A DNA stretch of 64,000 nt from Eledone cirrhosa (GCA_964016885.1 OZ024765.1:12648001-12712000), one strand, 5' to 3'. Counted from the stretch's first letter, positions 810 through 62,974 are shown. Translations and numbers: made by a program. The notes: generated by a model not told the origin, from the sequence alone.

Positions 810-965
810 ATAAATGAAGTAATTCCATCGGAAAAGTCCAGGAAAAAAGAGTGCTCTATGTATGCAACAGAGCTTAATTATTATTATTATGTAATAAACA
901 ACATAAGGCAATTATTCCATTTAAATGGAATAATTGCCTTATGTTGTTTATTACATAATAATAAT
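810..965. mobile_element. Fold-back fragment of the hammerhead-bearing family seen at 62660-62932 and 40875-40966
   Basis: Perfect palindrome 880-965; flank taaatgaagtaattcc..ggaaaaaaga shared with 62660-62720. Confidence 0.75.
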
Positions 966-1276
966 ATATATATATATATATATGATGATATATGTATATA
1001 TGTATGTATATAGGTATATATATATATGTTTATGTGTATTTATGTATATATATATATATATATATATATATATATATATATATATATATATATATATATA
1101 TATATATATATATATATGTGTGTGTGTGTGTGTATATATAAAAATATATATGTATATATATGTATATGTATATATATATATATATATGTATATATATATA
1201 TGTATATGTATATGTATATATATATGTATATATATATATATATATATATATATATATATATATATATATATATATG

Positions 1277-1575
1277 AAAAAGTATGACCCCGATGGCAGA
1301 GCTCAAGCCGTTTCGACGGCTATTTCTGGACTAAATTAATTTTTAGCCTGGTGAATAAATAGCTGAACTTGTAAAGGAGGTACTTCCTTATATGGGAAGA
1401 TTGTAGTTTATTCACCAGGCTAAAAAGTCTAATTTAGTCCAGAAATAGCCGTCAAAACAGCTTGAGCTCTGCCGTCGGGGTCATACTTTTTCCTATTTCC
1501 CACTCTACTACTCTAAGTATTGAGTACTCTGGTGCGTTATGGTCCATCTGGTTCCTTACCACATTTCCTTTGTTA
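1277..1575. mobile_element. Fold-back repeat family A (gagctcaagccgtttcgacggct) between (TA)n tracts
   Basis: Inverted arms ~1278-1360/1407-1491; related copies at 5362-5425, 24265-24425, 30696-30884, 32467-32632, 41590-41785, 43322-43516, 45229-45446, 63385-63496. Confidence 0.8.
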
Positions 1576-1661
1576 TATATGTATGTTTGTTATATATGTA
1601 TGTATATACAGAGATGTTATATATGTATGTATATATAGAGATGTTATATATGTATGTATAT

Positions 1662-2072
1662 ACAGAGATGACCCCTTAGCCTTTGTCAAGGCAGAATTCT
1701 AGGAGAAGGAAAACTCTGATATAACACCTGCAACCCTGATGGTATCCAATGATGTTGACTTGTTCTTCTTTTTGGTAAATATCATCTTGGTTAAGAGAGT
1801 GGGACTGGCTTTGTGCAGTGCCTTTGCTCACTATAAAAGCTTCACGGCACAGGCATTGCTTTATATCTGGAGATCTCTCTGCACTTGTCGTTACATGGTA
1901 CCATGGGCCCAGCACTGTGTGTCAATAATTGTCACAAGTGTAGTGTTTGTACCAGAGTTTTCAAGTCGCCGGCTGGACTAAAATGTCACACTCGTTCAGC
2001 GCATCGGTAGGGGTTCTCCTACATGGATATGAAGTAGTGGCCGTACTCGAAAACGAGTTGGCAGCCACAACC
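1662..2072 (+). mobile_element. 5'-truncated copy of the ~610-bp repeat at 8350-8961
   Basis: Near-identical reverse complement of ~8350-8765. Confidence 0.8.
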
Positions 2073-2704
2073 ATATATATATATGTATTCACAATCTTAC
2101 AATCTTACAATCTTACAATCCCATAATCCCACAAAGAGACAGACAGATAGACAGACATACTGACAGATCTTATTTCATCTTAATACATGTAGTATATTCT
2201 GGAGGTAGACCTTTTGTCTGGTCTTAACTGTGTCAAGGTAAAGACTCTTTCAGCAAGACCAGTTCTACTGTGTTGTTTAACTACAGTTGGTGAGACTTCA
2301 TCCAACATGGCTTCTGCTCCCACATATAGAATTTGTCTCAGACACAAACAATTACATGGTATATAGCTATTTTACATAACCTATATACACAATAGAATAC
2401 AATTGATGACTATACATTACAAACATGTTTTTCATACAACAATACAAACAAGCATACATATAATTCATACATATATATACATACATACGTACGTACGTAT
2501 GTACATACATACTAACATACATGCATACCAACAGACATATAATTCATACATATATACATACATACATACATACATACTAAGATACATGCATACCAACATA
2601 CATAAATGCATACATACATATATATATCCCAGCATGACCTCAGCCGGATGGCTGAAACAGGTAAAAGAGTAAAAGAATATATGTATACATATATATATAT
2701 ATAC

Positions 2705-2955
2705 ACACGACAAAAAAACACACAGTCCACGCTGTAATGTGGCCGTGTAGGCAACACGGTAAAAACCTCCCAGCCCCACACTGTAAATGTGGTTGGTGTT
2801 AGGAAGGGCATCCAGCTGTAGAAAACCCGCCAGACAGTCCTATGCGAGCAAGACAACCACTCTTGCCTCAAGTGGGAAAACCCCCGTCCAAACCCATGCA
2901 AGCGTGGAACACGGACGTTAAACGAAGATGATGATGATGATGATGATGATGATGA
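2705..2955 (+). mobile_element. SINE/RTE-derived repeat with (GAT)n tail
   Basis: gttggtgttaggaagggcatccagctgtagaaa core shared with 3950-4180, 4730-4780, 63570-63610. Confidence 0.7.
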
Positions 2956-59675: not shown

Positions 59676-60128
59676 TAACCCTTTAGCATTTAAACCGGCC
59701 GAATCCAGCCAGAATTCCCTGACCTCTTTCTGTTCAAACCGGCCATAACAAGCTATTCATACTGATGTCAAGGTATTGTTCTCAAAATAAATAATATCAA
59801 AATCTCGTAAATTCGATAATATGTGAGATAAAGGGCGGTGGATTGGCAGTATCGGTAGAGGGTCGGACGCCATGCTTTGCAGCATAGAGGTGCGGCCCTT
59901 TATGATCTGAGTTCAAATCCCGCCAAGGTTAACTTTGCCTTTTATCTTTATGGGGTCGATAAAATAAAGTACCAGTCACGCACTGGGGTCGATTTAATCG
60001 TCTTTCTTTCCCCTCATCCCAAATTACTGGCCTTGTGCCTATATAAGAAATTATAATTATGTGAGATAAAGCCTTTACAGTGAAAATACATTAGTAAATA
60101 TAGAGTAATCTAAATGCTAAAGGGTTAA
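59676..60128. mobile_element. piggyBac-like MITE with nested SINE-B (~59832-60055)
   Basis: TTAA-ccctttagcattta ... taaatgctaaaggg-TTAA. Confidence 0.8.
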
Positions 60129-60195
60129 CAGTTCTTCACCCTATTCTATATCCCTTTAGCATTTACATTGCTCTATATATACTATAATATTTACT

Positions 60196-61356
60196 CAGTG
60201 AATATCAAACACTGGGTTATGGGATCAGCCTCAGAGATTTGTGTAGTTCTAAAACTCCATTTACCCTTTAGTATTTACATTACTCTATATATACTATTAT
60301 ACTTTCATGGTAAAGGCTTTCCCTCACACAATTATCTCACATAATATTGAGTATAATACTTTAACGTTAGTATGAGTGGCCAGTTATGGCCAGTTTGAAC
60401 AGAAAGAGGTGAGAGAATTCTGGCTAGATACAGCTGGTTTAAATGCTAAAGGGTTAAAATATCACCATTTCATTTCAAATGCTTCTCAGTGAATATCAAA
60501 CACTGGGTTATGGGATCTGCCTCAGAGATTTGTGTAGTTCTAAAACTCCATTTACCCTTTAGTATTTACATTACTCTATATATACTATTATACTTTCATG
60601 GTAAAGGCTTCCCCTCACACAATTATCTCCCATAATATCGAATCTATGAGTGCAATACTTTAACGTTAGTATGAGTGGCCAGTTATGGCCGATTTGAACA
60701 GAAAGAGGAGAGAGAATTCTGGCTAGATACAGCTGGTTTAAATGCTAAAGGGTTAAAATATCACCATTTCATTTCAAATGCTTCTCAGTGAATATCAAAC
60801 ACTGGGTTATGGGATCTGCCTCAGAGATTTGTGTAGTTCTAAAACTCCATTTACCCTTTAGTATTTACATTACTCTATATATACTATTATACTTTCATGG
60901 TAAAGGCTTCCCCTCACACAATTATCTCCCATAATATCGAATCTATGAGTGCAATACTTTAACGTTAGTATGAGTGGCCAGTTATGGCCGATTTGAACAG
61001 AAAGAGGAGAGAGAATTCTGGCTAGATACAGCTGGTTTAAATGCTAAAGGGTTAAAATATCACCATTTCATTTCAAATGCTTCTCAGTGAATATCAAACA
61101 CTGGGTTATGGGATCTGCCTCAGAGATTTGTGTAGTTCTAAAACTCCATTTACCCTTTAGTATTTACATTACTCTATATATACTATTATACTTTCATGGT
61201 AAAGGCTTCCCCTCACACAATTATCTCCCATAATATCGAATCTATGAGTGCAATACTTTAACGTTAGTATGAGTGGCCAGTTATAGCCGATTTGAACAGA
61301 AAGAGGAGAGAGAATTCTGGCTGGATACAGCTGGTTTAAATGCTAAAGGGTTAAAA
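60196..61356. repeat. ~299-bp tandem array (4 units), each holding a piggyBac-like MITE plus flank
   Basis: cagtgaatatcaaacac at 60196, 60487, 60786, 61085; each unit contains aaatgctaaagggttaa. Confidence 0.9.
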
Positions 61357-62839
61357 TAAACTAAGCCACAAGTCTTTGGTTGTAGTAAAAAGACAAACCA
61401 CTCTGCCCGATATTTCTCAAGTCACCCAAATAAGAAAATTCTCCAAACCAAGTTAAGCGCTTTTTTTCTTCTTCTCTCTCAAAATGCTAAAGATTTTGAT
61501 ATTTATTTTGAAATCAATACCTTAACATCAGTATGAGTGGACAGTTATGGCCTGTTTGAACAGAACTTTCAATTTTGAGAGAATTTTGGCTGGATACAGC
61601 CTGTTTAAATGCTAAAGGGTTAAGCTATTTTATAGCATCGGCCTTTATAATTATATAACAATAAAATAAAGTCTTTACAACTGGAAACAATACAGGATAC
61701 AGTGTATGTAGGTCTGCGAATGGGGGCGGGTATGGCGACGGGGGGGGGGGGGGATATAAATAGACTTTCGTCAAAAAACAGATGGGAGGGAGTTGTCACG
61801 TTGATAGGTAAGTAGTTAATTAAAGGAGTGCATAGCGTTACAGTATTAATAAATAGCAATGTGTGTGTGTGTGTGTGTGTGTGTATGTCTATGCGCGCGT
61901 GAATATCTATCTATCTATCTACGTATCTCTCTCTAGACACACACACACATATATATATACACATACATATATATACATATATCTATCTACACACACACAC
62001 ACACACACACACACATATACACCCAAGGGCATACATATAAAGAACCACACCCAGCCGTTACTTTATAAGGTCAGAGTACTAATAATAACAACAACAACAA
62101 CTATAATAATAATAATAATAATAATAATAATAATAGTAATAATAAAACAATGAAATCGTAAATCAAAGAACTGCCCTCCCCCGCTATCCCACCATGCCCT
62201 GTAATAATGTGTTTTTCTTGTCTTACTTCCAAACAGCTACAAGATTTGGTTTAACACCTACATGTAAATATCTTTTTTATCACACCTGTGATGGTGGTGT
62301 TGTTGTTGCTGTTGATGATGTTGGTGGTGGTAGTTGTAGAGGTGGTGGTGGTGGTGGTGTTTGTGGTGGTGGTGTTGGTATTGTTGTTGATGGTAGTGGT
62401 TGCGGGGGTGGTGTATTTTGATATACACGTACATGCATACGTATGTACATCCAAATATAAATGCATACATACATAAATACAAAACGTAAGCACACATGCA
62501 TTTCTCCCTCTCTCCTCTTTCCTTGCCCTCACTCTCTCTCTCTCTCTCTCTCTCTCTCTCTCTCTCTCTCTCTCTCTCTCTCTCTCTCTCTCTCTATTAT
62601 ATATATATATATATATATATATATATATATATATATATATATATATATATACACAGTATAAATGAAGTAATTCCGTCGGAAAGTTCCAGGAAAAAAGAAT
62701 GCTCCATGTAGGTTTCAGAGCTTAATAGTTATGTAATAAACAACATAAGATAATTATTTCATTTACCAGTGGTTCCTCACTTTCATATAGATTATATTTT
62801 TTGCTTTTAAAATCCACTGTCAATAAATACACCAGGATT

Positions 62840-62900
62840 TTTCATTCTGATGACTGAAAGCAAATTTCGTTTGCTTTCAAGAAACCACTGGTAAATGAAA
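62840..62900 (+). ncRNA. Minimal hammerhead ribozyme inside an inverted repeat
   Basis: tttcatt CTGATGA c tgaaagcaaa tttcg tttgctttca a GAAA ccactgg TA aatgaaa; arms ~62726-62773/62883-62931. Confidence 0.9.
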
Positions 62901-62974
62901 TAATTATCTTATGTTGTTTATTACATAACTATATATACAGTATATATATATATTTAAGAGGGAGAGAGAGAGTC

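Follow-up and report, generated by a model that had tools for sequence, protein, structure and literature searches.

We analysed a 64,000-nucleotide stretch of the Eledone cirrhosa genome (GCA_964016885.1, OZ024765.1:12648001-12712000; called the window here), in which an initial annotation had described a dense system of about 25 minimal hammerhead ribozymes in short fold-back elements among (TA)n tracts. Judged by the frames into which they run elsewhere in the genome, seven of the nine traced families are 5'-truncated 3' ends of autonomous Penelope-like elements (PLEs), four of the Hydra clade (A, B, C and E) and three of Neptune type (D, F and R); the other two (G and H) resemble retrozymes. 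In the Hydra-clade tails a short hairpin was found twice, and this twin hairpin is apparently a new cis-element. The distribution of the insertion ends suggests that two reverse transcriptases (RTs) on one RNA probably begin synthesis at two fixed sites, with one cut (TA)n end as the primer of each. It is possible, if rather less assured, that the hairpin pair of the Hydra RNA seats two RTs in tandem so that both cut ends prime at once. The tail and the inverted pseudo-long terminal repeat (pseudo-LTR), hallmarks shared by all PLEs that have lacked an explanation, would then be the footprint of paired target-primed reverse transcription, and the same machinery may copy small circular ribozyme RNAs into inverted arrays, leaving several hundred thousand hammerheads.

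Insertion ends and the twin hairpin

Each family was observed to have two alternative end points, 35 to about 100 nt apart, which bound the tail, and single-arm copies end at either of them. When inverted insertions covered at least 85% by the family reference were scored, one tailed and one tail-less arm were found in 83/83 (A 24, E 15, C 8, G 11 and K 25, two of the K loci looking duplicated). Among 30 family A loci, the tail of about 96 nt was located on the direct arm in 7, on the inverted arm in 15, on neither in 8 and on both in 0, two loci being counted twice. The tail arm was often the shorter one while the longer arm had no copy of the tail, and plain fold-back was ruled out by such copies. 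The two arms disagreed at common polymorphisms in 35/452 cases (families K, A and H), compared with 0.44-0.49 for shuffled pairs, which indicates that the arms are of one source or were homogenised later. Templating of the two arms by two different RNAs was rejected by these shared variants, unless conversion followed. Short arms ending at the hammerhead cleavage site were also considered; this was true of one family A copy and not of the others.

The same short motif follows each end point in the tails of families A, B, C and E. It folds into a hairpin with a lower stem of four pairs (GCUC with GAGC, or ACUC with GAGU in some host families). Next come a pair of a pyrimidine with a purine, a bulge of two bases on the 3' side, the first of them U, an apical helix that varies, and ACU. 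The search pattern prescribed the lower stem but neither of two other features: the pyrimidine-purine pair was present in 41/41 and the bulged U in 69/69 hairpin copies. Only registers consistent with the hairpin structure exceeded shuffles, and in an alignment of 27 rows 95% of the cells paired, with a covariation score that was reached by 0/500 shuffles and may be inflated by the relatedness of the rows. The hairpin was also found in a metagenome set of 78 marine loci encoding Hydra relatives, 40 of which had enough sequence upstream of the frame. A hammerhead core was present in 32 of these 40, and the 3' half of the hairpin occurred twice in 25/40, once in 9/40 and not at all in 6/40, the control counts in the same loci being 1 for the reverse strand and 5 for the ORF (open reading frame) interior. 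The twin copies were spaced 54-82 nt apart. A model built exclusively from the metagenome rows gave 14 window matches at E<0.05 and missed long-loop copies.

The position of the hairpin was closely related to that of the genomic ends. A TA step peaked six bases upstream of the hairpin (34/68), and ends were located at most 12 nt upstream of a hairpin in 59/60 matches of family A, 58/64 of family C and 40/41 of family E, with 13 matches that ran on towards the ORF excluded. Since the ends track each hairpin, the tail equals the spacing of the two hairpins. No account of a duplicated hairpin was found in a literature search that had the supplements of Craig 2021 and Frangieh 2024 outside its scope, nor any report of hammerheads in octopus PLEs, with many subscription journals outside its coverage.

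Parent elements and retrozymes

Families A, B, C and E were assigned to Hydra-clade 3' ends by motifs and identity, and the short window copies of these and the other traced PLE families are, by the same comparisons, 5'-truncation products. Family A, queried with 44613-44768, had 1212 candidate places in the 3.0-Gb genome, and 30 loci shared a common 3' end, differing 5' cut points and a location in TA tracts. Long copies continue into the endonuclease (EN) frame. One full element (L032) has the order inverted arm, partial pseudo-LTR, tail, 5' untranslated region (UTR) and ORF, and its 808 open codons are followed by a 3' UTR of about 950 nt, a hammerhead and a tail. It deviates from its relatives at the catalytic arginine, and its protein model (pLDDT 84) had telomerase RTs as the top four Foldseek matches. 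In most of 30 loci, family C is followed downstream by a second Hydra frame. The N-terminus of the family C protein gave 8873 candidates, of which 150 had scores of 89-100%, and full copies (L348-L355) had frames of 707-714 amino acids in 8/8 fetched; many family C copies keep long open frames. A second, diverged hammerhead-like copy was observed about 450 nt past the stop in L350-L355, besides the terminal one. Family E was represented by a full but frameshifted element (L356), and family B was linked to an ORF in 4/11 extended loci (L424, L429, L430 and L431).

The assignment of B and E to Hydra was based on segment identity to A of 38-63% across RT and endonuclease. DKT replaced DKG in 8/8 family C frames and in 38/51 proteins of the family A homologue set, and the family A copy itself has NKT at this position. 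A CxCX5C linker and a C-terminal endonuclease without CCHH were found in family A and in 7/8 family C frames; whole Hydra proteins gave no significant Pfam match. The ends were followed by TA-type repeats in 56/61 (A), 47/75 (C) and 36/43 (E) matches, run-ons included. Pseudo-LTRs formed by partial tandems with the hammerhead inside were present in A, C, E and F, and 5' truncation with an inverted arm and a tail at one end was counted in A, C and E and also seen in B and F.

Families D, F and R were identified by motif as PLE 3' ends of Neptune type (Neptune or Nematis), with a CX4CX2C linker and a CCHH-type GIY-YIG domain at the C-terminus. Family D was linked to an RT-endonuclease frame in 5/11 loci listed, and two family R loci were collinear over 3.5 kb into a PLE ORF. 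Family F had 1191-1240 open codons in 5/5 fetched copies, and many of its copies keep long open frames. Its domain matched GIY-YIG with an E of 1.5e-4, narrowly below the cut-off, and the whole family F proteins had no significant Pfam match. A family F frame (L390:1715-5431, minus strand) contains a long Asn/Thr/His-rich insert before the RT, and similar N-rich inserts are reported for rotifer PLEs in the available text of Arkhipova et al. 2013.

Families G and H are non-coding tandem monomers and, by their organisation, non-LTR retrozymes with PLE-type ends. The family G monomer is 312 nt long, and its copies are 99-100% identical and arranged in head-to-tail runs; the arms of one inverted array had 8 and 3 units. 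The family H monomer is 323 nt long with a U3-A8 core, its copies are 88-98% identical, and up to 2 units were found. The two families have sequence blocks in common, and each monomer carries one type I hammerhead. The G and H hammerheads ride on a long stem I extension (z -6.0 and -5.4), and the folds of the two families had z of -3.8 and -6.0. No linked frame was found at 36 G and 30 H loci, and Hydra fragments near the copies were other insertions or in the opposite sense. G and H likely use PLE-type proteins in trans. The templates of their arrays would likely be circles or multimers of RNA, and some units may be added by tandem growth in place. One short AT-rich word with a final CG comes after both end points of family F, and the G and H tails begin with it as well, a weak hint that Neptune-type proteins may move G and H. 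A 342-nt contig (run X4, second organism code), aligned to 10861-11091, covered the G monomer at about 97% and continued past its end into its own beginning, the pattern expected of a tandem or circular unit; it carries no information on expression.

In the window, family G is located at 10756..11106 on the plus strand, with an inverted arm at 10756-10861, a direct arm at 10861-11071 (core 10908) and a tail of about 35 nt at 11072-11106. The family H insertion extends over 14665..15334 and consists of a minus-strand part at 14665-15090, containing the tail and 1.2 monomers with a U3-A8 core near 14879, and a plus-strand inverted partial monomer at 15089-15334, with a U3-A8 core near 15157.

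Insertion mechanism and alternative explanations

In the insertion mechanism that we propose, the GIY-YIG domain would cut both strands of a TA tract and each hairpin, by its predicted binding, would hold one RT. The two cDNAs would stop early and join head to head via short AT-rich microhomology, leaving a fold-back stump, and a single primed end would leave a plain stump with or without a tail. The hammerhead, by its position 40-130 nt upstream of the first site, would be carried along; it likely trims or circularises the transcript and would be dispensable for each insertion. At the sequence level this proposal is based on family-to-ORF links, common 3' ends and variable 5' truncation. A similar behaviour is described in the available text on another PLE, Poseidon PAc of the green anole (Frangieh et al. 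2024, PMC11167929), which has AT-rich targets. In vitro both strands were cut and extended and the RT started at two internal sites bounding the tail; the hammerhead was dispensable for insertion and cleaved only with protein, a dimer being predicted. Poseidon PAc belongs to another clade, however, its RNA signal was only delimited with no duplicated motif reported in that text, and the study leaves the steps to inverted copies open.

Paired priming has to be weighed against fold-back followed by nicking, in which cDNA from the tail end self-primes and copies itself and the EN then cuts one strand of the newly made duplex at the first site, hairpin 1 being read as DNA and the tail left on either arm by resolution. 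We regard this as unlikely, with a weight that is nonetheless real: it is closer to earlier proposals than paired priming, and it accounts for the matching arms and the palindromic junctions. In the available texts, Craig et al. attribute the tail to resolution by the EN, Arkhipova et al. 2013 take junction palindromes as self-priming, and according to PMC11167929 an earlier study of the Penelope EN found the tail to be required for EN recognition. It is at odds with the single-arm copies that end at either site, with the two hairpins being the same motif at the same offset to the end, and with the RT starts at both sites on RNA in vitro in the other PLE, as far as the text of PMC11167929 goes. 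That the hairpin pair instead serves transcription or translation from within the 5' UTR, as a promoter element or self-repression site, and lies near the ends by coincidence, appears improbable. The pair does lie between the hammerhead and the start codon, and in most metagenome loci 20-50 nt separate the second copy from the ORF, but the ends keep a fixed short distance to each hairpin though the spacing varies from 54 to about 100 nt, and the TA step peaks at -6. Several observations weigh against our proposal. Fold-back with a nick predicts the same junctions as paired priming, matching of the arms could come from conversion after insertion, and the arm-length counts (tail arm shorter in 41, longer in 14) were biased by the choice of query. 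The family H scripts gave mostly tail-less pairs (19/19 and 16/28), which we put down to the circular unit and microsatellite matches and which may be a real exception. The strict hairpin motif is missing from 6/40 metagenome loci, and the hairpin model finds nothing at the ends of D, F, R, G, H and K; G and K keep the one-tail rule, so that this hairpin is not its general cause. For G and H, the analysis turned up no partner protein.

The initial annotation had proposed that all the families are non-coding, retrozyme-like ribozyme retroelements moved in trans and had recommended their extension through the genome. By that extension, A, B, C, E, D, F and R ran into RT and GIY-YIG frames. The PLE-type hammerheads, the inverted insertions and the TA tracts of its account were retained, whereas the non-coding reading was refuted for A-F and R by the linked RT-endonuclease ORFs; a non-autonomous nature fits G and H, with their tandem 312/323-nt monomers and no linked frame, and fails for seven of nine resolved families. 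As a general explanation it is now very improbable. Short copies far outnumber full ones, and some, given that 5' ends cluster in A and E, may re-amplify alone, but the inversion points vary between copies, as fresh truncation predicts, and the clustered 5' ends of A and E lie on short AT palindromes matching the TA target. The idea that these clustered ends are transcription starts was not supported for the same reason. Least probable of all, to the point of being negligible, is that the pattern arose by chance or from assembly fold-backs in DNA rich in AT and microsatellites. The window is AT-rich animal DNA with about 30% simple repeat, and 8/25 listed sites fail the descriptor used here; for the 17 passing sites this reading was refuted by shuffles, decoys and multi-copy families, the latter with distinct flanks and junctions and with private changes between arms.

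Window features and relation to known elements

Hammerheads were counted with a strict type I descriptor (stem I of at least 4 bp, CUGANGA, stem II of at least 3 bp, GAAA, paired stem III and UH) and a relaxed one that also admits the U3-A8 core, as in PMC4209133. The comparison with dinucleotide shuffles, which the initial annotation had called for, placed the window counts far above chance: 13 strict matches against a mean of 0.03 and a maximum of 1 in 60 block dinucleotide shuffles, and 19 relaxed matches against 0.225 with a maximum of 2 in 40 shuffles. Each of 11 decoy cores had 0 or 1 match in the window. Twenty 10-kb genome pieces, picked at round coordinates and so non-random, had 18 relaxed matches in 199.8 kb compared with 0.7 in shuffles, and the window is thus about three times as dense (19 per 64 kb). 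A rough figure for the 3.0-Gb assembly, given these non-random samples, is 2.6 x 10^5 hammerheads (Poisson range 1.6-4.3 x 10^5). No hammerhead was among the 150/376 matches listed from an Rfam scan of the window; those listed were low-scoring hairpin or microsatellite matches only, and none reaches the gathering score.

Seventeen of the 25 sites originally listed satisfied the descriptor (10902, 15153, 23967, 25172, 25843, 26647, 31107, 31239, 40905, 41999, 43109, 43718, 44639, 46075, 46282, 58442 and 62840), and eight were degenerate or doubtful. The GAAA box at 3366 is mutated to GAGA in the window copy and intact in other copies, 14837 has a mismatch in stem III, 22882 has a broken stem I (fold z 0.64), 53910 and 54146 are without a clean stem II (fold z 1.06 and 0.47), 54533 and 54841 have a stem I of 2 bp only, and the core at 58109 is mutated. 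At 14837/15153, 25843 and 54533/54841 the core is UUGANAA instead of CUGANGA. Descriptor matches at 31732 and 42889 were absent from that list; the hammerhead-like motifs missing from it were seen at 31725-31805 (plus strand, palindromic stem III, fold z -2.25) and, more weakly, at 57905-57965 (plus) and 42830-42895 (minus). The inverted arms and (TA)n flanks were confirmed in the window, as was the earlier view that an assembly fold-back artefact is unlikely, since for each family the candidate places number in the hundreds to thousands and differ in their flanks and inversion points.

Family A is present in the window as a tail-less minus-strand 3' end (44613..44768, hammerhead core 44699) joined to a plus-strand inverted arm with the tail of about 96 nt (44768..44914, hairpin 1 from 44833), and as a second minus-strand 3' end (46252..46426, core 46344). 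Family B has two inverted insertions, at 45889..46173 on the plus strand (core 46083, tail-arm hairpin 45944-45977 on minus) and at 43677..43954 on the minus strand (core 43775, tail hairpin 43862-43892 on plus). Family C has an inverted insertion at 62652..62929 on the plus strand (core 62847, tail hairpin 62696-62727 on minus), a minus-strand 3' end at 40870..40970 (core 40960) and an inverted stump at 813..963 that ends before the hammerhead (tail hairpin 848-879 on minus). The family E 3' end is located at 26554..26751 on the plus strand (core 26652), with an inverted tail-only arm at 26554-26635. A family M inverted insertion lies at 58299..58531 on the plus strand (core 58445), with a weak variant tail-arm hairpin at 58368-58396 (E 0.34). 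The commonest fold-back family in the window is S, which has a Hydra hairpin in its tail and no complete hammerhead. Its copies are at 1276-1573, 5360-5427, 24274-24424, 30698-30882, 32487-32631, 41591-41784 (an inverted stump without a complete hammerhead, Hydra hairpin 41707-41741), 43322-43514, 45231-45397 and 63385-63494. Part of the hammerhead core is present in a longer copy (L115:2090-2160), and no parent element of S was found. Further Hydra-type hairpins with no listed hammerhead nearby, at 21844-21873, 47736-47772, 9296-9332, 46545-46574 and 14172-14212, are probably tails of more truncated families. More Hydra families, with 30-85% identity to A, were observed in the flanks of other loci (L124, outside the array, L130, L138, L238 and L239) and in 3/20 genome samples.

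Among the Neptune-type families, D has a minus-strand 3' end at 41910..42150 (core 42030) and a minus-strand copy with a mutated core at 58021..58196. Family F has a plus-strand 3' end including the last ORF codons at 24950..25364 (core 25176) and minus-strand partial tandem fragments with a 157-nt period at 26055..26490, where the first half of the core is missing. Family R has a minus-strand inverted insertion at 25726..25987 (U3-A8 core 25876). Apart from the few terminal codons of family F, the window is without a PLE RT or GIY-YIG ORF, as the annotation had stated. A family K inverted insertion is located at 30957..31392, with cores at 31140 (minus) and 31244 (plus) and a 38-nt tail on one arm; no parent was found among 398 candidates with a query that spanned the inversion junction. 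Other hammerheads are those of family Q at 23900..24076 (minus, core 24020) and family N at 42900..43300 (plus, core 43113), together with a family O copy with a mutated GAAA box at 3263..3468 (plus, core 3370), a family L inverted pair at 53843..54323 with doubtful hammerheads at 53964 (minus) and 54151 (plus), and a family J inverted insertion at 54394..55065 with U3-A8 cores and a 2-bp stem I. Fragments of non-LTR retrotransposon frames were seen at 22333-22794, 38070-38873, 41156-41545 and 12860-13374, with Pfam matches to RVT_1 at 22333 and zf-RVT at 38070, and the doubtful hammerhead at 22882 falls inside the continuation of the first. A dispersed repeat of about 190 nt, which we take to be like a short interspersed element (SINE), is present at 17292-17486 and in about ten further copies (23711, 35233, 36062, 36269, 42213, 47965, 57004, 57184, 58955 and 59831); no tRNA was found in the window. 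Tandem arrays at 11424-11989, 17612-18392, 52394-53128 and 60194-61358 have periods of 23/92/78, 95, 123 and about 299 nt, and no hammerhead descriptor match lies inside these four.

The elements themselves belong to known families, and truncated-PLE hammerheads, opposite-strand pairs, tails, TA targeting, the Hydra clade and retrozymes are in print already. The Hydra clade of Craig et al. 2021 (PMC8557442, available text) has in common with our families a single ORF, DKT, a CxCX5C linker and no CCHH, as well as a pseudo-LTR hammerhead, (TA)n targets, an inverted 5'-truncated arm and a tail on one end. It is described there as a few dozen aquatic families, generally <3 kb, whereas the elements here are about 3.7-4.3 kb long with 3' UTRs of 1-2 kb, tails of 70-100 nt and candidate ORF copies numbering in the thousands; no twin hairpin is mentioned in the available text of that paper. 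Families D, F and R share with Neptune (or Nematis) the linker, the CCHH-type endonuclease, a hammerhead downstream of the stop and TA targets, but the family F frame has about 1200 codons and the Asn/Thr/His-rich insert. The minimal PLE hammerheads of Cervera and de la Pena 2014 (PMC4209133, available text) are similar in their many families per genome, U3-A8 variant, long helix II, short helix I and palindromic stem III, and in being mostly single motifs of truncated PLEs with opposite-strand pairs 100-700 bp apart. Stem III inserts of up to 8-10 nt are found here, unlike there, and roughly 2-4 x 10^5 hammerheads compare with 2,000-9,000 in that text and 126,247 in the axolotl, under differing descriptors. 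Metazoan non-LTR retrozymes, in the available texts of PMC7229834 and 10.64898/2026.07.22.740005, resemble G and H in their non-coding AT-rich monomers of about 310-320 nt, one type I hammerhead per unit, head-to-tail arrays and co-occurring PLEs; the G and H arrays differ by inverted arms, one tail of about 35 nt and TA targets, and H by its U3-A8 core. Neither retrozyme arrays with PLE-type ends nor a counted one-tail rule was reported in the literature searched, supplements being outside the search. According to the available text of 10.64898/2026.07.22.740005, one study saw no cleavage in 8/9 dimers predicted for Xenopus, and a 2026 octopus repeat annotation (PMC13282606) describes recently active Penelope families, with Hydra and ribozymes unmentioned in the text available.

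PLEs are the sister group of telomerase, and the making of their inverted, tailed insertions is an open question. The 30-nt motif that occurs twice, the end points in three families and the many intact proteins of about 710 amino acids make the insertion mechanism directly testable. That animal retrozymes are mobilised by PLEs, as has been proposed, is supported at the sequence level by the near-identical family G arrays with PLE-type ends. Annotators may mistake the short fold-back stumps of PLEs for miniature inverted-repeat transposable elements (MITEs), SINEs or microRNA hairpins. The Hydra clade, which had been described as small, is here a major and apparently active component of the genome.

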